A stretch of 64,000 nt of DNA from Bacillota bacterium. Lineage in GTDB: Bacteria > Bacillota > Clostridia > Lachnospirales > Lachnospiraceae. Positions 5,238 to 35,137 of this stretch are shown here, one piece after another; position 1 is the first letter of the stretch; each line of letters starts with the position of its first letter. A program made the position numbers and the translations under genes. Location: positions 1 through 64,000 of the forward strand of contig JAEYOY010000038.1 of assembly GCA_023411215.1 (NCBI GenBank). Reading direction: 5' to 3'. The notes beneath the pieces are model-generated. The model saw only the letters and a program-made list of their open reading frames with translations, was not told the origin of the DNA and searched no databases.

Positions 5238-5927
5238 TTGCACATTGATTCAATTTCAAAAGGCGGATTGATGGAAGTAGAGGTCAGATGTAACGGTAAG
5301 ACAGTTACTTTCAAAAGTGAAGTAGCTCATATCATAAACAACTCTATTTTGATTGCACCCATTAAGGTAAATGAGCAGACCATCGGTTTTTCAGAAAGCT
5401 GTAAGATTAACTTCCTATATGTATTTGAGGGAAAGCTTTTTTTATGGGAGATCGCTAATGTTAAGCTCGTGAAATATGACGGTATTATTTATCATAAGAT
5501 TGATATTTTTGGTGACGGAAAGCCTTTCAACCGCCGTGATTCTTATCGAATGTTTATCGGTGAGGATATGCCTATTTATGTCAACACCGCTTCCGGACCT
5601 ACTGCGCTATCTGTCCTAATAAAGGATCTTAGTGAAACCGGTGTCGGTTTTATTGCCAAGGAAGACATCGATATTGAGCGTACCATCCGCCTTAAGCTGA
5701 AGGATAATAATTTAATTCTTAATCTATCCGGTATCATCGTTAGAAAAGAATTTCTTAATAATCTGGGCTCCTACTTATATGGTTGCCGCTTTAATGAGAA
5801 GAATGACAAATTATCGAGGTATATTGCAAAGAAGCAGAGCGAAGCCCTTCGCAAAAAGAATATTGGCGGTACTACATTGCATACCAGAGAAGCCGGTTCA
5901 AAATATGCCGAAATACTTAATAAATAA
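5238..5927 (+). CDS. PilZ-domain (c-di-GMP binding) protein, YcgR-like
   Basis: RxxxR motif (NRRDSYRM) and D-x-S-x-x-G motif (DLSETGVGF), with an N-terminal YcgR-N-like beta domain. Confidence 0.65.
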   Translation: MHIDSISKGGLMEVEVRCNGKTVTFKSEVAHIINNSILIAPIKVNEQTIGFSESCKINFLYVFEGKLFLWEIANVKLVKYDGIIYHKIDIFGDGKPFNRRDSYRMFIGEDMPIYVNTASGPTALSVLIKDLSETGVGFIAKEDIDIERTIRLKLKDNNLILNLSGIIVRKEFLNNLGSYLYGCRFNEKNDKLSRYIAKKQSEALRKKNIGGTTLHTREAGSKYAEILNK

Positions 5928-20983: not shown

Positions 20984-23623
20984 CTATGCCTTCTGTAGCT
21001 TTCGTTGTATTGCTTTCACAATCTCTACAATCGGAATAACACTGACAGCTAACAGCATTGCGATTCCATATTCCTCTAAGCTGATATGCTCAAATTCGAA
21101 GATGTTACTGAGGAAAGGAATATATATTACCGCCGTGGTCAGAATCAAGCTCATGGCAGCGGCTCCGATCAGTACCACATTCTGAGTATTCATACGAAAA
21201 ATTGATCCACGCTGACTTCTCATATTAAAACTATGGAATATCTCAGCCATACTCATAGTTAAAAAGGCCATCGTCATACCATCTGGACTGTTTACAAATT
21301 CCCATCTACCGGATTCAATATAATGACCGAGTAAATAAGCCAATAAGGTTACGACTGTTACCATTGCCCCCTGATACGCAACATCAATTCCGACACCACC
21401 GGAGAAAATCCCATCCTTAGAGGAGCGAGGCTTACGCTGCATCAGATCCTTCTCACCCTGCTCCATACCAAGTGCCAATGCCGGGAAGCAGTCTGTGATC
21501 AGGTTAATCCATAAGATATGCACGGGTTTCATGATAGTAAAGCCCAACAAGGTAGCAGTAAAGATGGATAATACCTCACTTAAGTTGGAGGATAAGAGGA
21601 ACTGTATCGCTTTACGGATATTGTCGTAAATTCGTCGTCCTTCTCCTACAGCTGATACAATGGTAGCAAAATTATCGTCGGCCAGTACCATGTCTGCAAC
21701 ATTCTTTGTTACGTCAGTACCTGTGATACCCATACCGACACCGATATCAGCACTCTTGATGGAAGGTGCATCATTTACTCCATCACCGGTCATAGCGGTG
21801 ATCATACCCTTCTTCTTCCAGGCTGTTACGATACGTACTTTATGCTCCGGTTGAACACGGGCATAGACGCCATAATTCTCGATGGTAGCCTGAAGCTCTT
21901 CGTCAGAGATCTCATTCAGCTGTGCTCCAGTTATGGCTTGCATCGGATCTTGAATAATACCAATCTGTGTTGCAATTGCAATGGCCGTATCTCTATGATC
22001 TCCCGTAATCATAACAGGACGGATACCTGCACTGCGACATTCCTTTATCGCTTCGATAACCTCTGGACGTACCGGATCAATCATACCGGTTAAACCGATG
22101 AATATAAGTTCCTTCTCCAAGAACTCAGGAGTGTACTCCGTCGGTGCTGTCTCATAGGTACGGTAGGCTGCTGCCAGGACGCGAAGTGCTTTGTCTGCCA
22201 TTCGTTTGTTTTCTTTTAATATCTCCTGACGCTTCTTCTCTGTCATAGGAAGGACTGTACCATTCTCTATGTAGAAAGTACATACGCGGAGTACTTCATC
22301 GGGAGCACCCTTTGTAAATTGTACAATACCTGAATTGTCATGTACGGTAGACATCATCTTTCGAACAGAATCAAAGGGAGCCTCTCCGATACGAGGAAAT
22401 ACTTTCTTCAATTCCGGCTTCAAGAGCGACAGCGTAGCCGCATAATTAACCAAAGCACATTCGGTGGGTTCACCGATTGCAGATCCATTCTCCAGCTCAG
22501 CATCACAACAGAGTGCCATTGCTCTACCAAGCAATTCCTCATCAGAGGTAAAATGATCAACTACAGTCATCTTATTCTGTGTCAGAGTTCCGGTCTTATC
22601 ACTACAGATAATCTGGGTACAGCCTAAGGTCTCAACTGCTGTTAATCGGCGAATTACTGCATTACGCTTACTCATATTCGTAACACCGATGGATAGAACG
22701 ATAGTTACAACAGCTGCCAGACCCTCAGGAATAGCGGCTACCGCTAGACTTACTGCCACCATGAAGGTATCAAGGACAACTGTTCCGTTCAAATCACCGG
22801 ATCGGAGCAGGCTGAATGCAAAGATGAATACACAGATACCAATTACAAGAACGGTAAGAATCTTACTTAATTGGTTTAATTTAATTTGAAGAGGAGTCTC
22901 GCCTTCTTCTGTTTTCGTGATGGCATCTGCAATCTTTCCCATCTCAGTGTCCATGCCGGTAGCGACAACAACAGCGCGCCCACGTCCATATACCACTGTA
23001 CTTCCCATGTAAGCCATGTTCTTCCGATCACCCAGGGGTATCTCCTTCTCTTCCTTTTTCAGAGATAGGATATCAATGATTTTATTTACAGGAACGGATT
23101 CACCGGTTAACGCAGCTTCTTCGATCTTCAAGCTGGCGCTTTCTAAGATTCTGCAATCAGCTGGAACAGAATCTCCTGCTTCCAGAAGAACCATATCACC
23201 AACAACCAGTTCCTCACTTTTTACACTTACAATAGTCCCGTCGCGAAGCACCTTACTCGTAGCTGCTGCCATCTCCTGTAGGGCTTCTATTGCCTTCTCA
23301 GCTTTATTTTCCTGATATACACCAAGCACGGCATTAATGATTACTACAATCAAAATGATGAAAACATCCGCAATAGACTCTCCGGCATAGATACTGGTTG
23401 CACCCGATATTGCTGCTGCCACGAGCAGTATTATAATCATAGGATCGGTAAGCTGGGATAAAAATCGTTTAAGCAGGCCATCCTTCTTACCCTCTACCAG
23501 TTTGTTCTTACCATTCTTCTCCAATCTTTCTTTGGCCTCAGAGGCGGTAAGCCCCTCTGCTTTACTTCCTACTACTTTTAACACATTTTCTTCTTGCTCA
23601 AGATAAAACTTCATTCGCGACAA
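20984..23623 (-). CDS. P-type cation-transporting ATPase (P2-type, Ca2+/Mn2+-ATPase family)
   Basis: DKTGTLT phosphorylation motif (CSDKTGTLTQN), TGDGVNDAPS hinge motif, 10 TM helices. The likely true start is the ATG 3 codons into the ORF, with an aaggaaggga RBS. Confidence 0.9.
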   Translation of the reverse strand: MSRMKFYLEQEENVLKVVGSKAEGLTASEAKERLEKNGKNKLVEGKKDGLLKRFLSQLTDPMIIILLVAAAISGATSIYAGESIADVFIILIVVIINAVLGVYQENKAEKAIEALQEMAAATSKVLRDGTIVSVKSEELVVGDMVLLEAGDSVPADCRILESASLKIEEAALTGESVPVNKIIDILSLKKEEKEIPLGDRKNMAYMGSTVVYGRGRAVVVATGMDTEMGKIADAITKTEEGETPLQIKLNQLSKILTVLVIGICVFIFAFSLLRSGDLNGTVVLDTFMVAVSLAVAAIPEGLAAVVTIVLSIGVTNMSKRNAVIRRLTAVETLGCTQIICSDKTGTLTQNKMTVVDHFTSDEELLGRAMALCCDAELENGSAIGEPTECALVNYAATLSLLKPELKKVFPRIGEAPFDSVRKMMSTVHDNSGIVQFTKGAPDEVLRVCTFYIENGTVLPMTEKKRQEILKENKRMADKALRVLAAAYRTYETAPTEYTPEFLEKELIFIGLTGMIDPVRPEVIEAIKECRSAGIRPVMITGDHRDTAIAIATQIGIIQDPMQAITGAQLNEISDEELQATIENYGVYARVQPEHKVRIVTAWKKKGMITAMTGDGVNDAPSIKSADIGVGMGITGTDVTKNVADMVLADDNFATIVSAVGEGRRIYDNIRKAIQFLLSSNLSEVLSIFTATLLGFTIMKPVHILWINLITDCFPALALGMEQGEKDLMQRKPRSSKDGIFSGGVGIDVAYQGAMVTVVTLLAYLLGHYIESGRWEFVNSPDGMTMAFLTMSMAEIFHSFNMRSQRGSIFRMNTQNVVLIGAAAMSLILTTAVIYIPFLSNIFEFEHISLEEYGIAMLLAVSVIPIVEIVKAIQRKLQKA

Positions 23624-25325: not shown

Positions 25326-25622
25326 TCACTCTGATCGGTTACTTTTTATGATGTCATAGCCTAAAAGCTGTATTAACTTTAGCGCTTCCATCGAGGTTCT
25401 ACGGTCAAGCTCCTTCTCAGCTTCGGGTAGCTCATCATAGGATACTAAATTCGGATGCCGTTTTAAGCGGTCATTTCTTTTAGGGCCATAACTCCATCCA
25501 TTCTTCAATCTCTCTTCTGCCCAATTTTCATGGGTATTCTTTGCCAGTGTCTCTGCTATTTTTAATAGGTTATGATCTATTGCAACCTTGCTTGTATCGA
25601 TTGGATTTGGAATATATTTCAT
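25326..25622 (-). CDS. standalone RyR (ryanodine-receptor) domain protein
   Basis: 98 aa. HENWAEERLKNGWSYGPKRNDRLKRHPNLVSYDELPEAEKELDRRT closely matches the bacterial RyR-domain consensus (NWA...GW.YG...D...HP.LVPYEELPE.EKE.DR). Confidence 0.7.
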   Translation of the reverse strand: MKYIPNPIDTSKVAIDHNLLKIAETLAKNTHENWAEERLKNGWSYGPKRNDRLKRHPNLVSYDELPEAEKELDRRTSMEALKLIQLLGYDIIKSNRSE

Positions 25623-25635
25623 AGGTTAACCTCTT

Positions 25636-27468
25636 TTATAAATCACTTTTTGTTATACCATAACCTGAGGAAGATAAAATCAATCCAAGATTCTGTATCA
25701 GGAACTGGTCTGCTTTTTTATAATCTTTATTGAATACAGAACTTACATGATCAAGCTCATCCCATTCAACCAAACAACTATGTAATTTTAGGACTTCATC
25801 CTTGTTTTTTTCCTTCCCTTGAATATCAGTCATGGTTCTCCATCCATTTACAAAATGGTATGCATTCCATCTCATATGCTCTCCCTTTGATAACTGATCA
25901 AAGATAACATTATCTTTCAAAAGATTTTCATAGATTGTCGTTTTAGATCCTTTTTCATAACTGAGTCCAACGGAATTTAGCTTGGACTGGAAATGTAAAG
26001 CCAACGCTCTATTTGACTGCTTTTCAAAAAGGCTGATCTCCTCCCAAGTCCTAGTACTTTTATATACCGAATTATAAAAATCATGACATTGTTTCGCTAG
26101 ATGATCCAACTCTTCATTTATAATATTATTCTCTGTAAACAAATTATTTGATGACCCAAACCATATAACGTTACTAAGCAAGGTTGTTTTAAATAGTACT
26201 TTATATTTCTCATAATCTTTCACATATGCACATATCCTGGCTTTTGCCTTACTATGAATACATAGCCGGCTAACCTCGGATGCAGTCTCTACATCATCAT
26301 TAGCAATTATGATACAATTCAGATCAGGGAGATACCCCTTAAGCTTAATATAATATTGTTCTGTATCAAGCTTTGCATCAACAAACTCAAATGATGCGCA
26401 CTTCTCAACTTCCGGATTTTTTTGAAAAAAGGAAGCGGTTTTATCCCTGATCTCTTGTTCAACCAGAACTAACTTTAATTTAATGCCATCACATTGACCC
26501 AAAATGATAATATTTCTATATAGATCTTCACATATCTCTGAAAAACCGATGATGCATACCGTTAGTACCTCCTTCTTATCAAGTGTACTAACAAGCGTAA
26601 ATTGATCAAACAGCTGTCGGGAGATCAGATTATTCAAATCTATGATATGAATATCCAGTTGTGAAAAATCATCCCTAGAAAATACATCCTCACAAATATT
26701 ATGATCGGTGAAAACATACAGACTAACATCCTTATTCTTTTTTTTATTCTTTTTGTAACTTTCAGCATATTGATCAGTAAAAGTTATATTATCATAAATA
26801 TCTTCATTGATTGCAAAAATAAACGTCTTGTATTTTACAAATCTTAAACAAATGTTAATGATATCGTCAAGACTATATATCATGTATATAATATGTCCAT
26901 ATTTTGAAGCTTCTATTTCAAGCCTTATACTCTCATCCGAGTCACTTTTATTATCAACACTAAGGATTATGATGCTGTCTTTATTTTGCTTTTTAATATC
27001 ATTTGCTAGAGCTAAACTGTTTTTATTCAGCGCTGTAAAAATGTATACTTTCTTATTCCGAGTAAAACACCGGATAAACTTCAACTGAATCTTGCTCATT
27101 ACCCGATAACCTAACAGGGATAATATGATCATTCCGGTTACCAGCAGGGAAAAGGTCATGATAAGACCAAAAAAAATATTATACAGAGGCATGTTAGTAA
27201 CATTTGTTTCAAAAGAGGAAATATCATTTTCTAATACAAACATTCTTCCCGTACTGAAAATTGCCATTAATCCAGATGATATATAATCAAGAGGGCCCTG
27301 GCTTTTTGTGAGATATCCAATGGTATAGATACATATACCCAATATAATAAATGCAGATAGTATTTTTAATCGATGCTTTGCAAACCAGGTCTGATACCGA
27401 GATATTATAAATACTCCAAAAAATATTAATAGAATATCAAAAATGATAATTATGATTTGAACTAGCAT
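25636..27468 (-). CDS. membrane protein with degenerate RCK/TrkA-like middle region and C-terminal RyR domain
   Basis: 610 aa, 4 N-terminal TM helices. The C-terminal ~90 aa (EHMRWNAYHFVNGW...LHSCLVEWDELDHV) is RyR-like. The gene is very AT-rich. Confidence 0.55.
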   Translation of the reverse strand: MLVQIIIIIFDILLIFFGVFIISRYQTWFAKHRLKILSAFIILGICIYTIGYLTKSQGPLDYISSGLMAIFSTGRMFVLENDISSFETNVTNMPLYNIFFGLIMTFSLLVTGMIILSLLGYRVMSKIQLKFIRCFTRNKKVYIFTALNKNSLALANDIKKQNKDSIIILSVDNKSDSDESIRLEIEASKYGHIIYMIYSLDDIINICLRFVKYKTFIFAINEDIYDNITFTDQYAESYKKNKKKNKDVSLYVFTDHNICEDVFSRDDFSQLDIHIIDLNNLISRQLFDQFTLVSTLDKKEVLTVCIIGFSEICEDLYRNIIILGQCDGIKLKLVLVEQEIRDKTASFFQKNPEVEKCASFEFVDAKLDTEQYYIKLKGYLPDLNCIIIANDDVETASEVSRLCIHSKAKARICAYVKDYEKYKVLFKTTLLSNVIWFGSSNNLFTENNIINEELDHLAKQCHDFYNSVYKSTRTWEEISLFEKQSNRALALHFQSKLNSVGLSYEKGSKTTIYENLLKDNVIFDQLSKGEHMRWNAYHFVNGWRTMTDIQGKEKNKDEVLKLHSCLVEWDELDHVSSVFNKDYKKADQFLIQNLGLILSSSGYGITKSDL

Positions 27469-27610: not shown

Positions 27611-28132
27611 CTATTGCTGTTTAGCTCCGCATCTGGAACAGAAAACTGCATCGACTGTTATCTGATGACCACAGGCTGTACAGAAAGCACCGGCAGTGGT
27701 TGTCGAAGTTTTATAACTGCTATATCCATTCGCTTCGAGGGTATGTACCGCTTCTTCGACCACGCTTATTGCCTCATCATCCAGTTTGGATTGTTTCACT
27801 AGGCCTGATATCTGAGTAAGCAACACGGGCCACGCAATAAATAAGGATATTGCTGAAGGGATCAACTGCTGTCCAAAGATTCCTACCTTGGCACTTACTG
27901 ATATTCCCCCCATTGCTTCCTTTATTTCGATATTTAAAGCAGTTTTCATTCCAAGAATTGACTTAAAGATTCCGCCCTTGCTAATACTGATAAACTGCCC
28001 AAACGCATTCCCTTCCACATGAACAGTATATCCGTTATTTTCAAAATGAGTTTTTGCTATCTTCGCAACTTCATCCAAACTTTTATAATGAGTTGTTATA
28101 AATTTATCCGATTTAAATGTAGCCATATTCAT
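27611..28132 (-). CDS. hypothetical protein with C-terminal zinc ribbon
   Basis: 173 aa. One hydrophobic helix. C-terminal CTACG...CSRCG zinc-ribbon motif. Confidence 0.5.
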   Translation of the reverse strand: MNMATFKSDKFITTHYKSLDEVAKIAKTHFENNGYTVHVEGNAFGQFISISKGGIFKSILGMKTALNIEIKEAMGGISVSAKVGIFGQQLIPSAISLFIAWPVLLTQISGLVKQSKLDDEAISVVEEAVHTLEANGYSSYKTSTTTAGAFCTACGHQITVDAVFCSRCGAKQQ

Positions 28133-28140
28133 ATCCTCCC

Positions 28141-28386
28141 CTATATACGCTTACTATTCAGTGTGTATAGTACTGCCATTTCACTGAATGCATCAACGAA
28201 CAATTTTTTATCATCATCACTTACCTGTTGATTAATCTGCTTCAGAAGGTTTAGTACTACGTTTGACTGCTCTATGATTTCCTCGTCCGTTATTCGTGCA
28301 TCCTCCATTATTTTTTTGTAGCTTGGCATCTCCATCACTATTTCATCCAAACATAAAAATCCATTTTTATCAAATAAGCTCAACAT
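28141..28386 (-). CDS. small hypothetical protein
   Basis: ORF 28141..28416. Its start is probably the internal Met (MLSLFDK), which avoids overlap with the upstream M48 gene. Confidence 0.3.
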   Translation of the reverse strand: MLSLFDKNGFLCLDEIVMEMPSYKKIMEDARITDEEIIEQSNVVLNLLKQINQQVSDDDKKLFVDAFSEMAVLYTLNSKRI

Positions 28387-29279
28387 GTAAAGTCCTCCTC
28401 TATTTTCTTTCCGCAATGTTTACAGAATACCCAGTCTTTCTCAACCATTCCACCACAACTGCGGCATTCATTATCATTTTGCTTCATATAATCCATAATT
28501 TTCTCAAAATCGCTACTCTCACACCATTGCTTAATCTCGGCAGCACGTACAGCAGTAAAGGGATGTGTCTGGTTCATCAATACCATAAACTGAAGAGTCT
28601 TGTTCCATAAGGAACTATCAATCAATTTTTGATATTCTTTTGCCTGTTCGATGTATAGCTTCTGATTCACCTTTGCCGTAATATTTTTACTTCCTCCAGA
28701 AAGGCGTGTCATAACCTCTATTACTGAGGAACAGCTCTGAAGATATACTGCAGCAGCCCGATCCGCGGAAAATTCACTGCATCTTTGCCAATGGCAAAAG
28801 GCTATCTTAAGAGGTAAAGAGATTGCATCTATTCCCAATAAATCTATCCCCTGGTTGATAATTATATCTGCCATAGAATGATACAGACAATGCCTGCATG
28901 CAATATGTCCACACTCATGAGCAAGTACTGCTTTCACTTCATCCTCTTCCATGATTTCAATCAATCCTGAAGTTACTGTTATGGAAATCATTGAATCACC
29001 GAAGGTATACGCATTTGGATAAGGATTCATTTCCAGATAAAACTCAGGTTCCGTAATGCCCAATACTTTACATATAGGTGGCAGCAGTTGGTATATTTCC
29101 GGTAACTGATCGGGTCCGAGCCTAATCTTACTTGACATATTAATCCCATGAATCATAGTTTCATTATAAATTTTCATAAAAGTTTTTAATACCAGTTGAA
29201 ATCCAGGTATCGCTTCTAGCGCCAGTAAAGTTTTCTTATCCTGTTCATGGTAATAGTTACTTGGGTTAATTACTTTCAT
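28380..29279 (-). CDS. M48-family zinc metallopeptidase with C-terminal zinc ribbon
   Basis: HEXXH motif (LAHECGHIACRH) in an M48/Ste24-like context. C-terminal CRSCG...CKHCG ribbon. Confidence 0.7.
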   Translation of the reverse strand: MKVINPSNYYHEQDKKTLLALEAIPGFQLVLKTFMKIYNETMIHGINMSSKIRLGPDQLPEIYQLLPPICKVLGITEPEFYLEMNPYPNAYTFGDSMISITVTSGLIEIMEEDEVKAVLAHECGHIACRHCLYHSMADIIINQGIDLLGIDAISLPLKIAFCHWQRCSEFSADRAAAVYLQSCSSVIEVMTRLSGGSKNITAKVNQKLYIEQAKEYQKLIDSSLWNKTLQFMVLMNQTHPFTAVRAAEIKQWCESSDFEKIMDYMKQNDNECRSCGGMVEKDWVFCKHCGKKIEEDFTC

Positions 29280-29871
29280 ATAAGCAATCTCCTTCCATTA
29301 ATACACAGATAAAGCCTACATCTCTTTGTCATATAGACTTAATTCACAGTGATACTTACCTTTTTTACTCATTTTTTTATGTAAGGATTTCCATTTGTCC
29401 AATCACATCTAGTTACATTATCACTGCCTTATTTGCATTCTAAATGTTCTAAATCATTTTAATTGACTTAGTGGCATAATTGTATTTTATTAGTTAATTT
29501 TACCATATTTCTTCATGACATGCATTACATTTTTAATTTCAAACCAATACATTTCATTCTTCTTTCATTCTTTTTAAACGTTCTAAAATAAGTTCTAGCA
29601 AATTCTCATATGCATATCTTATTAAGAAAGGCATGAAACGAACGACTATCTTGTCCAATAACATCTGACCAATTCAGGAACAGCCTCATCTAAGATACAT
29701 TTTTCCATTTGCTCTATCATCTAGCAGGAGCCCCTATAATATCATGCAAAGCCCGAATGATTATTAACAGTACCGTAAATTTGTATTGTTATATTCTGTT
29801 TAATTATGGTAAAATATACCTAGGTTTTATCCTAATAAATAGATTATCATTCTTAAAGTGGGGAGGAAAAT

Positions 29872-32800
29872 ATGATGCAAAATTCATTTGATACAACACC
29901 TGAAACAGAGGAAAAGTATACCTATTATGCCTTTATCAGCTATAAACATGAAGATGAAAAATGGGCCAGATGGATTCAGAATAAATTGGAGACCTACAAG
30001 TTGCCTACGGTTCTGCAAAAGGAAATTAGAGACCTCCCAAATCGCATCACTCCGATTTTTCGTGATAAGACGGATATCACCTCAGGCCCCTTAAAGAAGA
30101 CCCTTTCGAAGGAGCTACAGTCTTCCAGATTCCTAATAGTCATATGTTCTCCCAATGCAGCAAAATCAATTTATGTGGATTATGAGGTTGAGCAATTTAT
30201 CCGAATGGGAAGACAGGACAGAATCATTCCTCTGATCATCGACGGTGCTGTCAGAACCCAGAACCCTGAACAGGAATGCTTTGTTCCATCTCTTCTTGCA
30301 ATGGAGGAAACCATCCTTGGTGTAGATCTACCTACGCTTGGTAAGCACAAAGCTTTCCTGACAGTTATAGCCACGATGCTTGATATTAAGCTGGATACCC
30401 TAGTGAGGAGGGATCGGATCAGACAAAAGAAAAAAAACCTTCTGGCGACGGCAAGCATCACTATATTGCTGATACTTGCAGGCTTTACACTGGATTATTA
30501 CATCCCTAAGACCTATTATTATTCCGATTATGTACTGCAATGGGGAATACCAAAGGGTATATTCCGGCTTGACTATAGCTTCCTAGCCTTTGGTAAGAAT
30601 GAGCTGAAGGATAGAGACGATTTTTACGCTGTTACCATATCAAAATCCAATAAGACGATTACGCTGAAGCATATGAATTCCGCCATGGTTCCGGTTGACT
30701 ATCCAACCGAAACGGAGCAGAGTGACCGACCGGTTTTTGCAGAATATGATTATAAAGTTACGGATGGAATTAAGCAAGTTTCAGATGCAAAGTACTTCGA
30801 CAGATACGGGAATATTATACTTGTGCTGAAGTATTCGGACGACTCTACCATCGTTGATTTCACCAGCCCAGATGGATCCAACACCCCTGTTACCTTATCC
30901 GGAAGCTTGTTTTCAGAAAACGGTACAATGGATGTTAAAAATTTGGAAATAAAAAGCTCAATCACACGATACATATATCAATATGATGAAAACGGATACA
31001 TCAGTCTGGTTAAATTCATGCGAGATAACCGTGCCACATCCCCTACGCCGGATCAGAACGGAATCACGGGTTACATCTGTACGGTCGATCAATACGGCAG
31101 AGTAGTTACTAAGAGAATGAATTATGTATTTGATAATACCATCCATAATACTGTATTTGACAGAATCTATTACAATTACGCTTACCAATCTCCCAACCTT
31201 GTTAGTGTGGTATATACTGATGCCGAAGATAATTTGATATATAATGGTGATTTCTATGCAAAAAAAGAATTTTTCTATTATGATAATGGGAATATTAGTG
31301 ATATTTATTATTATGGGACAGATGGTGAAAAATGCACAGGCCCTTATGGTTATGCCCACGCCAGCATCATTTACGATAATAAAGGCTTTATACAGGAAGT
31401 TGATTACTATAACGAAAATAATTATCCGGTCATCACCGTATTCGGCTATGCGAAGGCGCAGCATGTACACGACAAGAAGGGCAATTTGACACAAGCTTCT
31501 GTATTCGATACCGATGGGAATCCAGTTGTGGCACTTCCTACTGATATATATCGGTATGTCAGCGGTTTTTCTACGATTCGTCGGGTTTATGATGAGAAAA
31601 ACATGCTCATTAGTGAAACCTATTACGATGAAAACGATGAACCCATGCTTTGTACTGGTGAATATGCAAGGCTCGATACCGCGTATCATAAAGGTCTTCT
31701 CAGTGAAGTAAGCTATTATGATGTTAACGGCGAACCAAAAACATGTAATATAGGCTTTGAAAAATTCACAAAGGAATATAATGAGTTCGACCTGGCGATC
31801 AACTGGCGATACTGCAATGCAGATGGGACCCTGTCGGAAACAACATGGGGATATTCCCGTATTGAGCTAGAGTATGATGAGAATAGAAATATAAAATCCT
31901 ATTCCTTTTATGATGAGAATGACCGACTCGTCATGACGGAAGATAACATTGCCCGCCAGGAACTAGTCTGGGATGACAGAGGACTGTTGTCTGAACAAAG
32001 TAATTATGATACGGTCGGTAACCTTGTTGTTTCAACCGCCGGATATGCCAAGAATGTTAAGGAATACAATGAAAGCGGTTTGTTGACCAAGGATATCTAC
32101 TATGATCAGAATGAGGAGCCGGTGTACGTTCCGGATCAAGGCTATGCAAGATATGAAGCAGCCTATGATGAATATGGTGACTGCACTTATAAGTCATATT
32201 ATGACGTTGATGGTCAGCTGGTTATGACCAATTATGGATATGCAGAATACAAAGCCTGGTATGACAGCAAAGCACAGAAGGTCGAGGAAGCCTATTACGA
32301 CGAAACAGGTAGTCTGGTCCTTCCAAATGGTTATGATTGGGCAAGACATACCATGGCATATACGGAAGAAGGATTACCAAAATGTGAAAGCTATTATGAT
32401 GCAGATAATCACCTGGTAATCAATTCTTACACCGGCTATGCAAAATGCTATGCAGAGTATGATGAGTGGAATAATATGCGTTCAAAAACCTTCTACGGTA
32501 CGGATGGTAAGGAGTTCATCTCACCGAATTTGGGGTTTGCTTCCGTTAAATATGTATACGAGAATAACTACCTGATCAGGACCAGCTATTATGATGAAAA
32601 AGGAGATCTGATTATTTCCCCAACCATTAACTATGCCGAGCAGATCCAGAAGCTGGATTCGAATGGAAAACTTCTTAGCAGCTGTACATATGACGATACA
32701 GGGAAGCCGATCCTTAATCTTTACGGTTATTCCAGCGTAACATGTACCTATAATCAAAAAGGGTTAGAGACAAATAGACAATACCTTGATGCCCAGGGCA

Positions 32801-33276
32801 AGCCGACGATTGCCCTGAATTATGGTTACGCAGAGATGGATATTCTTTATAATAAGGATGGTACATGGAAAAATGCCGTATTTTATGACCAGAGTGGCAA
32901 GGAAATTGATTCAAATCTGATTGTAACGAAATCCTTTGTATATATTTCTGAGGTTAAAGCACAGAGTGCCGGCTTAAAAGCCGGAGTACATATTAATGAT
33001 CTTATACTGCAGTACGGCGACTGGTGTTATTTCCCTGTGAATGAAGAAGATAGTATGTTTACCCTTCTTACAAATGAATTAGAAAGAGTAAAGGATTTAT
33101 CTAAAAAAGTTGTAATATATCGTCCGACGGACGCTTCCATCCAAACCTATCAATTTGATAGCGGGATGGTGGGACTACGAATTAACTCTGTAGATTTCAG
33201 CTTCCCGAGTCAGGAGGCTTATATGGAATACAGCACGGGACTGGAGTCGGCTTATCTTAGTAGCGGCTTAGAATAA
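29872..33276 (+). CDS. TIR-domain transmembrane protein with extracellular YD-like repeats and C-terminal PDZ-like domain
   Basis: N-terminal TIR_2-like motif (YYAFISYKHEDEKWARWIQNKLE...FLIVICSPN...DYEVEQF). One TM helix (LLATASITILLILAGFTLDYYI). About 20 tandem ~23-aa YD-like repeats (GYA...YDE.G.L.....YYD..G.PV). C-terminal GLKAGVHINDLILQYGDW PDZ-like segment. Confidence 0.6.
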   Translation: MMQNSFDTTPETEEKYTYYAFISYKHEDEKWARWIQNKLETYKLPTVLQKEIRDLPNRITPIFRDKTDITSGPLKKTLSKELQSSRFLIVICSPNAAKSIYVDYEVEQFIRMGRQDRIIPLIIDGAVRTQNPEQECFVPSLLAMEETILGVDLPTLGKHKAFLTVIATMLDIKLDTLVRRDRIRQKKKNLLATASITILLILAGFTLDYYIPKTYYYSDYVLQWGIPKGIFRLDYSFLAFGKNELKDRDDFYAVTISKSNKTITLKHMNSAMVPVDYPTETEQSDRPVFAEYDYKVTDGIKQVSDAKYFDRYGNIILVLKYSDDSTIVDFTSPDGSNTPVTLSGSLFSENGTMDVKNLEIKSSITRYIYQYDENGYISLVKFMRDNRATSPTPDQNGITGYICTVDQYGRVVTKRMNYVFDNTIHNTVFDRIYYNYAYQSPNLVSVVYTDAEDNLIYNGDFYAKKEFFYYDNGNISDIYYYGTDGEKCTGPYGYAHASIIYDNKGFIQEVDYYNENNYPVITVFGYAKAQHVHDKKGNLTQASVFDTDGNPVVALPTDIYRYVSGFSTIRRVYDEKNMLISETYYDENDEPMLCTGEYARLDTAYHKGLLSEVSYYDVNGEPKTCNIGFEKFTKEYNEFDLAINWRYCNADGTLSETTWGYSRIELEYDENRNIKSYSFYDENDRLVMTEDNIARQELVWDDRGLLSEQSNYDTVGNLVVSTAGYAKNVKEYNESGLLTKDIYYDQNEEPVYVPDQGYARYEAAYDEYGDCTYKSYYDVDGQLVMTNYGYAEYKAWYDSKAQKVEEAYYDETGSLVLPNGYDWARHTMAYTEEGLPKCESYYDADNHLVINSYTGYAKCYAEYDEWNNMRSKTFYGTDGKEFISPNLGFASVKYVYENNYLIRTSYYDEKGDLIISPTINYAEQIQKLDSNGKLLSSCTYDDTGKPILNLYGYSSVTCTYNQKGLETNRQYLDAQGKPTIALNYGYAEMDILYNKDGTWKNAVFYDQSGKEIDSNLIVTKSFVYISEVKAQSAGLKAGVHINDLILQYGDWCYFPVNEEDSMFTLLTNELERVKDLSKKVVIYRPTDASIQTYQFDSGMVGLRINSVDFSFPSQEAYMEYSTGLESAYLSSGLE

Positions 33277-33382: not shown

Positions 33383-35137
33383 TTATTCCATTACCTCACA
33401 AAGATCATATAATAATACAAGACTATCACCAACCGGTATTTCACCTTCCGCAATATCAAATCCTGATCCATTATATCGAAGTACTTTTACTTTGCTATTT
33501 TCATTTTTTATTCTGGCAGTCACAATATCTTCCATGGTCTTTATTTTTTTGCCGTTCATTTCAATTAAGATATCACCAAGCAGATAGAAGCTGTTCTGTG
33601 GCTTATCCGGTTCATACCCACCGATTAAACATCCGTAGTCAATCCCTGTACTGTCAACTTGTCTAAAGAATGCCTCTGCAATTGGAATGAAAACATCTGC
33701 CTCATCCGATGTATCCTTCTCATGGAATATCTCAAGGCATTCAATACACATATCATACATCTTCAGGGTATTAAAGCGAAGCATCTTCCCCCATATTATG
33801 CCTACTTCATCCGTCTCTAATGGTTTAAATTTTTCCTTTGCTTCTTCCTTTGTCTTATTCAATTCTTCCGTGACTTCCTTTAGTTTATTTACCTTACCCT
33901 CCAGCTCATCGAGCTGTACATTATAATCCCCTATTATAGAAGCAATTTCAGTAATTATATTTTGATACTTCGTAAAATTTGCGTCTGATATCGCTTTTAT
34001 TTCTTCCTTATTCTTACTCCACGACTGCCCATTATAGATATCCGGTAGTATGGGGAGCAATTCTGCTTTAAAATCTTTCAGAGCATCTTCATCTACATCA
34101 ACCAGGATATCATTTATGCCATAAAAAATCAGGTCCTTATTAATATCCATAATCTGTTCATAATAATCTGACAATTGAGTCATCGATGTTTTGGATAATA
34201 CACTTTCACCGGAGGACATATATATCATGTAGTCAATATTATTGAGGAATTCATCGGTACAAGTGATTAGGAAGTCCCTTACAGCAATAATATCATCTTT
34301 TGCTAGAATGGTATTATCAAGCTTTGCCGATAAAGTATCATCCAGTGTGACATAATTATCCTTCGCCTTTGTGATTTTCTCCTTGTTCTTTCTTAAATCC
34401 GATTGAAGAGCAGTATAATTAATTTCAGTCGGATCTGTTAGATAGTATTGGAATGCAGTTATAGCAAGATCATATTCTGCGATTGCTATATTGGCATTTG
34501 TTAAGTTTGTTGAAATATAATATATTACTTCCTTTACGGTGTTCTTATCCGCTTTCGAATATGGAAACGATGCCTGTGTTGTTTGATAGAACTGATACCC
34601 TGTGAATATGACACCAAAAGTAACAAACAATGCAATAACCAAGGGTAAAACCTTTTTAATTAAGCTATTATGAGTGATTCTATGTACAATCCTAGGCTTT
34701 GTTTTTAAAAATTCTACCAACCGTTTTGCAAAAGCATCAAAAAATTCTGTAGATGCCTCTATTCCGCTTTGATACCGAAGCTGTTCCATATCCTCGGGTA
34801 GCTTATCAGGAAATTGAAAGCCTCTTAACAGGACCGGTACCACATTCTTCCTTTTCTGTAAAGCATAAGCTACTTCCAGTCTGACCCAGTCATTATCATT
34901 GCCACATCGCTCCAAACAATTCGGCGATAAAACGGAGATAAAATCCTCGCATTCATCGATTACTGAAAACAGCTTTGAGTTGAATTGCCCCGAGCGAAGC
35001 GATTCAACGTCAAAAAATACATTATATCCCAATTCGGTTAATTTATCATGAATTATTTTAGCTGTATACTCTCCGCCTTCACGCCGATAGCTTATAAAAA
35101 TATCATATTTCATAGTAACTATACCTCCCTGATACAA
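33383..35137 (-). CDS. TIR-domain transmembrane protein with extracellular coiled-coil region and C-terminal PDZ-like domain
   Basis: N-terminal TIR (KYDIFISYRREGGEYTAKIIHDKLTELGYNVFFD...DFISVLSPNCLERCGNDNDWVRLEVAYAL). TM helix (VLPLVIALFVTFGVIFTGYQFY). C-terminal GDILIEMNGKKIKTMEDIVTARIKNENSKVKVLRYNG PDZ-like. Confidence 0.6.
   Translation of the reverse strand: MYQGGIVTMKYDIFISYRREGGEYTAKIIHDKLTELGYNVFFDVESLRSGQFNSKLFSVIDECEDFISVLSPNCLERCGNDNDWVRLEVAYALQKRKNVVPVLLRGFQFPDKLPEDMEQLRYQSGIEASTEFFDAFAKRLVEFLKTKPRIVHRITHNSLIKKVLPLVIALFVTFGVIFTGYQFYQTTQASFPYSKADKNTVKEVIYYISTNLTNANIAIAEYDLAITAFQYYLTDPTEINYTALQSDLRKNKEKITKAKDNYVTLDDTLSAKLDNTILAKDDIIAVRDFLITCTDEFLNNIDYMIYMSSGESVLSKTSMTQLSDYYEQIMDINKDLIFYGINDILVDVDEDALKDFKAELLPILPDIYNGQSWSKNKEEIKAISDANFTKYQNIITEIASIIGDYNVQLDELEGKVNKLKEVTEELNKTKEEAKEKFKPLETDEVGIIWGKMLRFNTLKMYDMCIECLEIFHEKDTSDEADVFIPIAEAFFRQVDSTGIDYGCLIGGYEPDKPQNSFYLLGDILIEMNGKKIKTMEDIVTARIKNENSKVKVLRYNGSGFDIAEGEIPVGDSLVLLYDLCEVME

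Follow-up and report, generated by a model that had tools for sequence, protein, structure and literature searches.

We analysed a 64,000-nucleotide window of DNA from a Lachnospiraceae genome (Bacillota bacterium, contig JAEYOY010000038.1, positions 1 to 64,000), focusing on two adjacent genes that encode a standalone ryanodine-receptor (RyR) domain protein of 98 amino acids (aa), named RyR98, and a 610-aa membrane protein, which together with its family is referred to as the channel protein. The pair appears to belong to a seven-gene, immune-type cassette at 25.3-35.1 kb, which also encodes two TIR proteins, TIR584 and TIR1134. Our core claim is that the pair and the TIR proteins form a Thoeris-like system in which the 610-aa protein is a membrane effector responsive to a TIR-made signal, and we consider it evenly balanced between right and wrong. 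The reading that accounts best for the data, in which a RyR-domain-gated RCK channel serves as the effector and the free RyR protein as an associated buffer or off-switch, is one we would bet neither on nor against; it is supported by the precedent of membrane and "ion channel" effectors in TIR systems.

RyR domains and the predicted ligand pocket

Both open reading frames (ORFs) reported by the sequence-only reading, which a model had made from the letters of this DNA, are present on the reverse strand (Table 1), separated by a gap of 13 nt and each preceded by a Shine-Dalgarno (SD) sequence. Its assignment of the smaller product to the RyR family was borne out, as RyR98 matched the Pfam RyR model (PF02026; model length 91, gathering threshold 27.4 bits) with E=1e-32 and 112.6 bits over model positions 1-89, well above the threshold. 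Searches of the PDB returned the solved Bacteroides thetaiotaomicron structures deposited as "putative ryanodine receptor" (3NRT/6UAG) at E ~1e-28, and RyR structures overall at E values as low as 9.5e-57. When compared with Repeat12 of the receptor RyR1, the best single repeat reached an independent E value (i-E) of 1.2e-16, the whole-chain E of ~1e-53 being a sum over the receptor's four RyR repeats.

The 610-aa protein itself reached 14.4 bits (E=0.047) against the same Pfam model and remained under its threshold, so that its RyR assignment must rest on family-level evidence. Pfam RyR matches, sub-threshold to moderate in strength (best E=2e-5), were found in 15 of 17 close homologues, the family profile matched solved bacterial RyR domains at E=8.6e-5 and a tandem chimera at 5.7e-11, and a jackhmmer search seeded with the large protein drew in small RyR proteins unprompted. 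The last repeat (repeat B, aa 515-610) aligned with the small-RyR family (hhalign, 97.5%, E=8.7e-12) and is, by this comparison, a divergent RyR member with two insertions. The RyR-like C-terminus proposed earlier therefore stood at the level of the family and fell short at that of the individual protein. The preceding repeat A also aligned with the small-RyR family (hhalign, 75.5%, E=2.4e-5); this alignment spans the whole domain, so that the C-terminus looks like a tandem of one degenerate and one competent repeat, as in eukaryotic Repeat12, an arrangement for which the alignment argues weakly.

The function of bacterial RyR domains, previously described as essentially unknown, can no longer be called so. 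Two 2026 preprints report that phage RyR-domain proteins bind or cleave TIR-made isomers of cyclic ADP-ribose (cADPR) (PMC13232231; doi 10.64898/2026.06.04.730250), which makes the TIR neighbourhood the key to the function of the pair. RyDEP (phage DyoEdafos gp78) is a RyR-domain cADPR glycosidase with homologues that serve as nanomolar sponges (PMC13232231), and RyR Tad (Pectobacterium phage CB1 gp68) is a sponge that binds 3'cADPR at 43 nM, and also 2'cADPR and cADPR, with H129/W132, K147/H154 and K170/D171 as binding residues (doi 10.64898/2026.06.04.730250).

In an alignment of RyDEP and RyR Tad with three host small RyR proteins and three channel protein C-termini (A2), the sole invariant columns were H75, W78, G86, W87, H100 and D117 in RyDEP numbering. 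The equivalents of H75/W78/H100/D117 are the candidate ligand residues H31/W34/H56/D73 in RyR98, at the same 3/22/17 spacing, and H531/W534/H563/D587 in repeat B. E530, H531, W534, A536 and G542 were 100% conserved across 78 members of the channel protein family, most of which share 18-30% identity with the window protein, and H563 and D587 reached 91% and 89%, respectively; no other patch of the whole protein is as well conserved as this one. Judged by these residues, both RyR98 and repeat B appear to keep the pocket with which phage RyR proteins bind or hydrolyse 2'cADPR, 3'cADPR and cADPR, and its conservation with RyDEP and RyR Tad suggests that the effector may bind a TIR-made nucleotide.

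Apart from the characterised proteins, two unannotated human-gut "Bacteriophage sp." contigs encode RyR proteins (MT836850.1, 1156-1431; MT837259.1, 925-1209) that are 52-53% identical to RyR98 and much nearer to it than any characterised phage RyR; by their sequences, they are candidates for phage counter-defence copied from such a host gene. A phage or prophage origin of the pair itself was considered and rejected, since viral contigs yielded no relative of the channel protein and the pair sits on a 401-kb bacterial scaffold, amid housekeeping genes and without phage genes. Both genes had also been described as extremely AT-rich; this is true of the 610-aa gene (31.8% GC) and not of the RyR98 gene (39.4%; window mean 40.8%).

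Membrane and RCK regions of the 610-aa protein

The AlphaFold2 (AF2) model of the 610-aa protein was confident overall (pLDDT 84.7, pTM 0.80), with N-terminal helices followed by two Rossmann-type domains and a helical C-terminus. Hydropathy revealed three strong transmembrane (TM) segments (aa 1-27, 32-55 and 95-121), and a conserved amphipathic helix at aa 59-77 bears the FSTGRMFVLEND motif; the TM count, given as four by the sequence-only reading, is therefore three to four. AF2 placed helices at 2-24, 33-53, 59-77 and 94-118, with low confidence throughout this region (pLDDT 52-71). Scanned alone against Pfam at E<=10, the TM region gave no match, and Pfam scans revealed no potassium-channel P-loop or TVGYG-type filter, no Ion_trans_2, and no TrkH or KtrB partner.

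After the last TM helix follows a tandem Rossmann-type RCK fold. Structure comparison matched this region to TrkA (17.6), KtrA (17.0), GsuK (14.8) and SLO3 (13.7), and further to Slo2.2, BK and the RCK domain of E. coli Kch, identifying it as a tandem RCK unit with TrkA/KtrA/CASTOR as its nearest folds. Pfam scans of the RCK region alone at E<=10 gave no match, TrkA_N included, and among the homologues TrkA_N matched weakly in 2 of 17. Most of the family carries the motif G-x-G-x-x-G in the second RCK domain (RCK2; Gly at 100%, 83% and 85% in the three positions), which in the window copy has degenerated to G-F-S-E-I-C (aa 303-313, window 26530-26560). The earlier description of the middle region as degenerate and Rossmann/RCK-like was thus accurate. 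Judging from this motif, the RCK unit of the window clade may no longer bind dinucleotides, while the RyR pocket was kept. The guess of a channel-like or signalling complex likewise holds up on the predicted domains. Separately, PADLOC returned a weak match of the 610-aa protein (window 25636-27468) to CARF8--CARF_TM at aa 114-240 (E=5e-4), which is probably generic Rossmann-fold similarity, because structure comparison identifies RCK domains; a CARF-like ligand site is the less likely alternative.

The same architecture could belong to a housekeeping nucleotide-gated channel. The 4TM-RCK-RyR protein would then regulate K+ or cation flux in response to ATP/ADP/NAD(H), by analogy with RCK proteins of the Ktr/Trk/MthK type and with RY12 of RyR1, a domain that senses ADP, the free RyR protein would be an auxiliary nucleotide-binding subunit, and the nearby TIR genes would reflect an unrelated island insertion. 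The kinship of the tandem RCK fold with TrkA/KtrA/CASTOR, the GxGxxG motif kept in RCK2 of most family members and the description of RY12 as an ADP/ATP site, in the accessible part of its source, are all in line with this explanation, whereas the window copy, its Rossmann glycine motif lost, still has its RyR pocket. Taking into account the gene neighbourhoods described below, we regard a housekeeping channel as unlikely.

Gene neighbourhoods and the TIR-containing cassette

While a word-indexed search returned only 18 relatives of the 610-aa protein, an exhaustive profile search recovered 734 cluster representatives (50% identity) at E<=1e-30 and 3,792 at E<=1e-10, none of them with a Pfam annotation. 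For neighbourhood analysis, we collected 92 loci from genomes and metagenomes, which dereplicated to 71 clusters, 31 of them with at least 1.5 kb on each side of the channel gene (well-flanked). A TIR gene lay within 3 kb of the channel gene at 12 of the 31 well-flanked loci (39%) and a small RyR gene nearby at 10 (~32%); 16 had either and six had both. TIR genes were enriched close to the channel gene (24/392 near genes versus 6/325 far genes, p=0.004). A Pfam census of 150 genes at positions +-1/+-2 of family members ranked TIR_2 first (16) and RyR second (12), with TIR at 11, and further contained TPR, Zn-ribbon, M48, DUF4062 (5), ThsB_TIR (5), patatin and nSTAND1 families. Similarly, PADLOC detected mainly TIR models and scattered other defence genes in these neighbourhoods.

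The association with TIR was seen repeatedly, in two phyla and over an identity range of 22-100%. On Butyrivibrio pNP243, an annotated TIR protein is encoded directly upstream of a family member, and an Arcobacter plasmid (CP146529.1, 5955-9678) carries a split version composed of a "NAD-binding protein" (324 aa), a "RyR domain-containing protein" (166 aa) and a DUF4062 protein (728 aa), adjoining a type I restriction-modification system, an integrase and recombinases. The partner proteins combine an N-terminal TIR or DUF4062 domain with a hypervariable C-terminus composed of NACHT/STAND-TPR, WD40, RHS repeats, Fib_succ_major or no assigned domain. A constant partner combined with variable sensors is typical of immune signalling.

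At the window locus itself, both TIR_2 proteins carry the catalytic Glu, which was 100% conserved in 28 of 28 neighbour TIR domains. TIR584 matched the TIR domain of human SARM1 at E=7.6e-26, with DWVHKE aligned to DWVRLE, placing the catalytic Glu, and TIR1134 gave no match to the PDB by sequence. One TM helix follows the TIR domain in both proteins, giving them a receptor-like topology. TIR1134 and TIR584 are, by sequence, candidate sensors and signal synthases. An orthologue of TIR1134 is retained at two of the related loci described next (L002/L003), and TIR proteins are also present at a third (L004).

The closest homologues of the channel protein carry the same cassette between other flanks and in shuffled gene order. 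The window reads M48 - 81 aa - Zn-ribbon - channel - RyR, with TIR1134 divergent and TIR584 upstream; L002 reads channel - RyR - M48 - 81 - Zn-ribbon, followed by TIR; and L004 reads RyR - channel - M48 - 81 - Zn-ribbon - TIR - TIR - TIR. The two-gene module proposed by the sequence-only reading was supported as a conserved pairing and revised as to its extent, the unit being the seven-gene cassette. Its placement immediately beside the TIR block was incorrect, as the TIR genes are 2.4 kb away and the genes for the Zn-ribbon protein (173 aa), the 81-aa protein and the M48 peptidase lie in between.

Surveying homologous neighbourhoods, the check that had been suggested for the pair, confirmed conserved pairing: the small RyR gene is the +1 gene, immediately downstream, in 15 of the 20 loci having one, and it is fused to the channel gene in two family members. 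These natural fusions, P0045 (749 aa) and L026:9845-12313, end in an additional canonical RyR domain that is 47-53% identical to RyR98, with both pockets intact. Since the two fusion proteins are only 34% identical to each other, the fusion is old or recurrent; by sequence, it is a Rosetta-stone link for the gene pair.

The fusions, together with the apparent translational coupling of RyR98 (the 13-nt gap and the frequent +1 position), would also suit a different role for the small protein within the same system, namely that of an obligate structural subunit pairing with repeat B to form a hetero-Repeat12 ligand site, rather than a buffer or off-switch. RyR domains do act as two-fold dimers or tandem repeats, although the standalone ones solved so far are homodimers (PMC13232231; doi 10.64898/2026.06.04.730250). 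The small RyR gene is, however, missing from two thirds of the family loci, and the channel protein's own repeat A could, at a stretch, serve as an intramolecular partner. We grant the structural-subunit role a real but minority chance; the data do not discriminate between it and a sink or timer.

Several further observations weigh against a TIR-responsive channel. No pore signature could be recognised in the TM region, which was modelled with low confidence, so the label "channel" rests on the RCK analogy. Small RyR and TIR genes did not co-occur significantly (odds ratio 3.75, p=0.13), and three genes separate the window TIR genes from the pair, with one TIR gene on the opposite strand. TIR and small RyR genes are both absent from the surroundings of roughly half of the well-flanked loci, so partnership with TIR cannot be obligatory for the whole family. 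In some clades, radical SAM/SPASM, SecDF and prismane genes surround the channel gene in a conserved synteny of housekeeping type. As for the ligand, ordinary dinucleotides may also bind, given that most family members keep GxGxxG in RCK2, or the ligand could be an ordinary adenine nucleotide, given the reported binding of ADP/ATP by eukaryotic RY12.

The solitary loci and those in housekeeping synteny count in favour of the housekeeping channel introduced above. That explanation is contradicted by TIR being the most frequent neighbour domain, over the whole identity range and in both phyla, by the NACHT/STAND-TPR, DUF4062 and other defence genes among the neighbours, and by a cassette that moves as a unit between differing flanks.

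A further possibility is an immunity or antidote module, in which the TIR proteins are NAD+-depleting toxins or effectors and the free and membrane-bound RyR proteins protect the producer, and do not execute the response, by mopping up or hydrolysing the ADPR-type products or by holding the TIR proteins in check. It would draw on the characterised standalone RyR proteins, which are sponges or glycosidases inactivating TIR signals (PMC13232231; doi 10.64898/2026.06.04.730250), on the catalytic His/Asp dyad kept in RyR98, and on the large sensor-like regions of the TIR proteins, which could make these self-sufficient. Such a module, however, gives no account of a RyR pocket joined to a TM and RCK gating-ring architecture across thousands of proteins, and whereas an antidote should always be inherited together with its toxin, only ~39% of loci have a TIR gene. 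We judge this explanation very unlikely.

Table 1. Coordinates of the cassette features in the 64,000-nucleotide window
Feature	Position	Strand	Basis or remark
RyR98, standalone RyR-domain protein, 98 aa	25326..25622	-	Pfam RyR, PDB matches, SD AAGAGG upstream
610-aa protein, whole gene	25636..27468	-	ORF call, SD sequence
610-aa protein, RyR-like repeat B, aa 515-610, predicted ligand-competent	25639..25926	-	H531, W534, H563, D587; two insertions versus canonical RyR
610-aa protein, degenerate RyR-like repeat A, aa 445-514	25927..26136	-	Without beta-hairpin, ligand residues lost
610-aa protein, tandem RCK/KTN-type Rossmann domains, aa ~136-300 and 301-444	26137..27063	-	GxGxxG degenerate in window copy
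610-aa protein, membrane region, aa 1-125	27094..27468	-	Hydropathy, family conservation, AF2 helices
173-aa protein: N-terminal domain, hydrophobic helix aa 90-112, C-terminal Zn-ribbon	27611..28132	-	Zn_Ribbon_1 E=6.8e-7
81-aa helical protein	28141..28386	-	SD GAGGAGG; conserved beside M48 in 7 loci
Soluble M48 zinc metallopeptidase (HExxH), C-terminal Zn-ribbon, 299 aa	28380..29279	-	Pfam Peptidase_M48 E=8.6e-19
TIR1134, 1134 aa: N-terminal TIR, TM aa 189-209, ~900-aa repeat-rich C-terminus	29872..33276	+	TIR_2 E=3.1e-14, ThsB_TIR 7.4e-9
TIR584, 576 aa from ATG: SARM1-like TIR, TM aa 150-176, ~400-aa helical C-terminus	33383..35113	-	TIR_2 E=2.5e-14

The M48 peptidase, the 81-aa protein and the Zn-ribbon protein (Table 1) are clade-specific accessories. 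Their genes (27611-29279) travel as a trio with channel genes from 25 to 100% identity, on either side, and in L004, L006 and L012 the M48 gene borders directly on the channel gene or overlaps it. The 173-aa Zn-ribbon gene co-occurs with the channel gene in L001-L004, L012, L025 and L040; a profile of its product found only Zn-ribbons in the PDB, and a single-sequence AF2 model (pLDDT 44.7) was discarded. The 81-aa protein matched no family in Pfam or in further family searches, and an EF-hand suggested by its DxNGxL motif was dropped, as the loop is off consensus and without a Pfam match. At L046, an 83-aa ORF (5655-5906) matches the M48 N-terminus and the hydrophobic core of the Zn-ribbon protein; by sequence it seems to be what a deletion left of the trio, at a locus that retains three TIR genes and the channel gene.

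The divergent M48 operon and TIR1134 are separated by 592 bp of intergenic DNA with 29% GC (29280-29871), which is likely a shared regulatory region; a consensus promoter scan there was uninformative. Promoter and terminator scanning of 24.9-30.0 kb gave 29 sites versus 25.1+-5.7 in shuffled sequences and was thus no better than chance shuffles, so no operon boundaries are claimed from these scans. A P-type cation (Ca2+-type) ATPase gene at 20984-23623 on the reverse strand, 1.7 kb from the RyR98 gene, was considered as a partner and rejected; it is absent from the homologous cassettes of L002-L004, so its proximity is probably coincidental.

Proposed mechanism and comparison with known systems

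For the TIR-responsive channel with an associated RyR buffer, we propose the following sequence of events. The TIR proteins would probably sense a trigger through their large, variable C-termini and would then convert NAD+ into a nucleotide derived from ADP-ribose (ADPR). This ligand would bind repeat B in the RyR module of the channel protein, and the RCK ring would transmit binding to open a pore that the 3-4-TM region would build as an oligomer, the resulting ion flux or depolarisation arresting the infected cell (abortive infection). RyR98, presumably a dimer like other standalone RyR proteins, would associate with the cytoplasmic assembly of the channel and act as a high-affinity sink or glycosidase, setting the activation threshold, ending the signal, or both. 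Its role would be analogous to that of host ring nucleases and self-limiting CARF effectors in type III CRISPR systems.

If correct, this mechanism would extend TIR-based immunity by a new sensor domain and a new class of effector, and would suggest that host systems carry their own RyR-type signal terminator, a plausible source of the phage anti-Thoeris RyR proteins. More generally, a family that is large (at least 734 clusters at 50% identity and E<=1e-30) and has been without annotation thereby receives a testable function.

Thoeris systems (types I-XI) couple a ThsB TIR signal synthase to a ligand-gated effector, with membrane effectors in types II (ThsC, Macro-TM), V (ThsF), VII (SLATT) and X (ThsK). 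Like these, the cassette places TIR proteins with a catalytic Glu beside a membrane protein with a predicted nucleotide pocket, includes several TIR genes per locus, is mobile and island-like, and follows a predicted logic leading from a TIR product to a membrane effector. It differs in that its TIR partners are large and receptor- or NLR-like, whereas Thoeris ThsB is short, in its additional M48, 81-aa and Zn-ribbon genes, and in that only ~40% of the family members are TIR-linked.

A December 2025 preprint predicts 29 types of Thoeris effector and reports validation of types V-XI, among them the "ion channel" effector of type X (doi 10.64898/2025.12.03.692087). The RyR/Repeat12 sensor and RCK ring of the cassette are not among the effector domains described in the accessible parts of the literature searched, and the words RyR, TrkA, Rossmann and potassium were not found in the preprint's supplementary tables, as far as these were accessible. 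Identity with type X ThsK (Bacillus sp. BH32) was rejected: the protein, recovered beside the published TIR gene (229 aa, L095:3298-3987, no Pfam match), reached 3.5% against our family profile in hhalign. Literature searches found no paper joining a RyR domain with TrkA in bacteria, and among the papers searched only the two phage studies tie Thoeris to a RyR domain (PMC13232231; doi 10.64898/2026.06.04.730250). The main caveat on novelty is a possible overlap with a predicted, unvalidated "4TM SLOG" type (Yirmiya et al.), which was sought through its TIR sequence without a match, and for which a plasmid search was uninformative. What is known here is Thoeris-type TIR signalling; what appears new is the variant, in which the RCK channel-like effector of a TIR system bears a RyR/Repeat12 sensor and is accompanied by a host RyR protein.

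Like RyDEP and RyR Tad, RyR98 is a small, soluble PF02026 protein with the same H-x-x-W/H/D arrangement. Unlike them, it is encoded on a chromosome, in an operon with a host membrane protein to which it is sometimes fused, and lacks any phage, anti-defence or NAD-salvage context. Its place in a host operon and its occasional fusion mark RyR98 as a system component, not as viral counter-defence. In contrast to MthK, GsuK, BK/Slo, TrkA/KtrA and CASTOR/POLLUX, the 610-aa protein has no P-loop or filter, its window copy has no Rossmann glycine motif, and it carries a C-terminal RyR module.

Animal ryanodine receptors share with the 610-aa protein tandem RyR repeats with a predicted adenine-nucleotide pocket on the cytoplasmic side of a channel-like protein, and a SARM1-type TIR is encoded alongside the latter. 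Homology is confined to the ~90-aa repeat, while pore, other domains and size differ (610 aa versus ~5000 aa). The action of cADPR on ryanodine receptors, and its site, have been argued over for decades, and action through Repeat12 itself is unproven in the animal SARM1/cADPR/RyR axis. The phage RyR-domain proteins of the 2026 studies bind TIR-made cADPR isomers by way of residues that Repeat12 also has. We tentatively suggest, leaning towards doubt, that TIR signalling through a cADPR-type nucleotide to a RyR-gated cation channel is a prokaryotic forerunner of this axis, with a host RyR protein that degrades or buffers the signal and was later captured by phages as RyDEP-type proteins. If so, a 610-aa system would become available in which to test the coupling of ligand to gate. 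By uniting a TIR of the SARM1 type with a channel-like protein that bears a pocket of the Repeat12 type, the cassette makes the disputed link from cADPR to RyR experimentally approachable.

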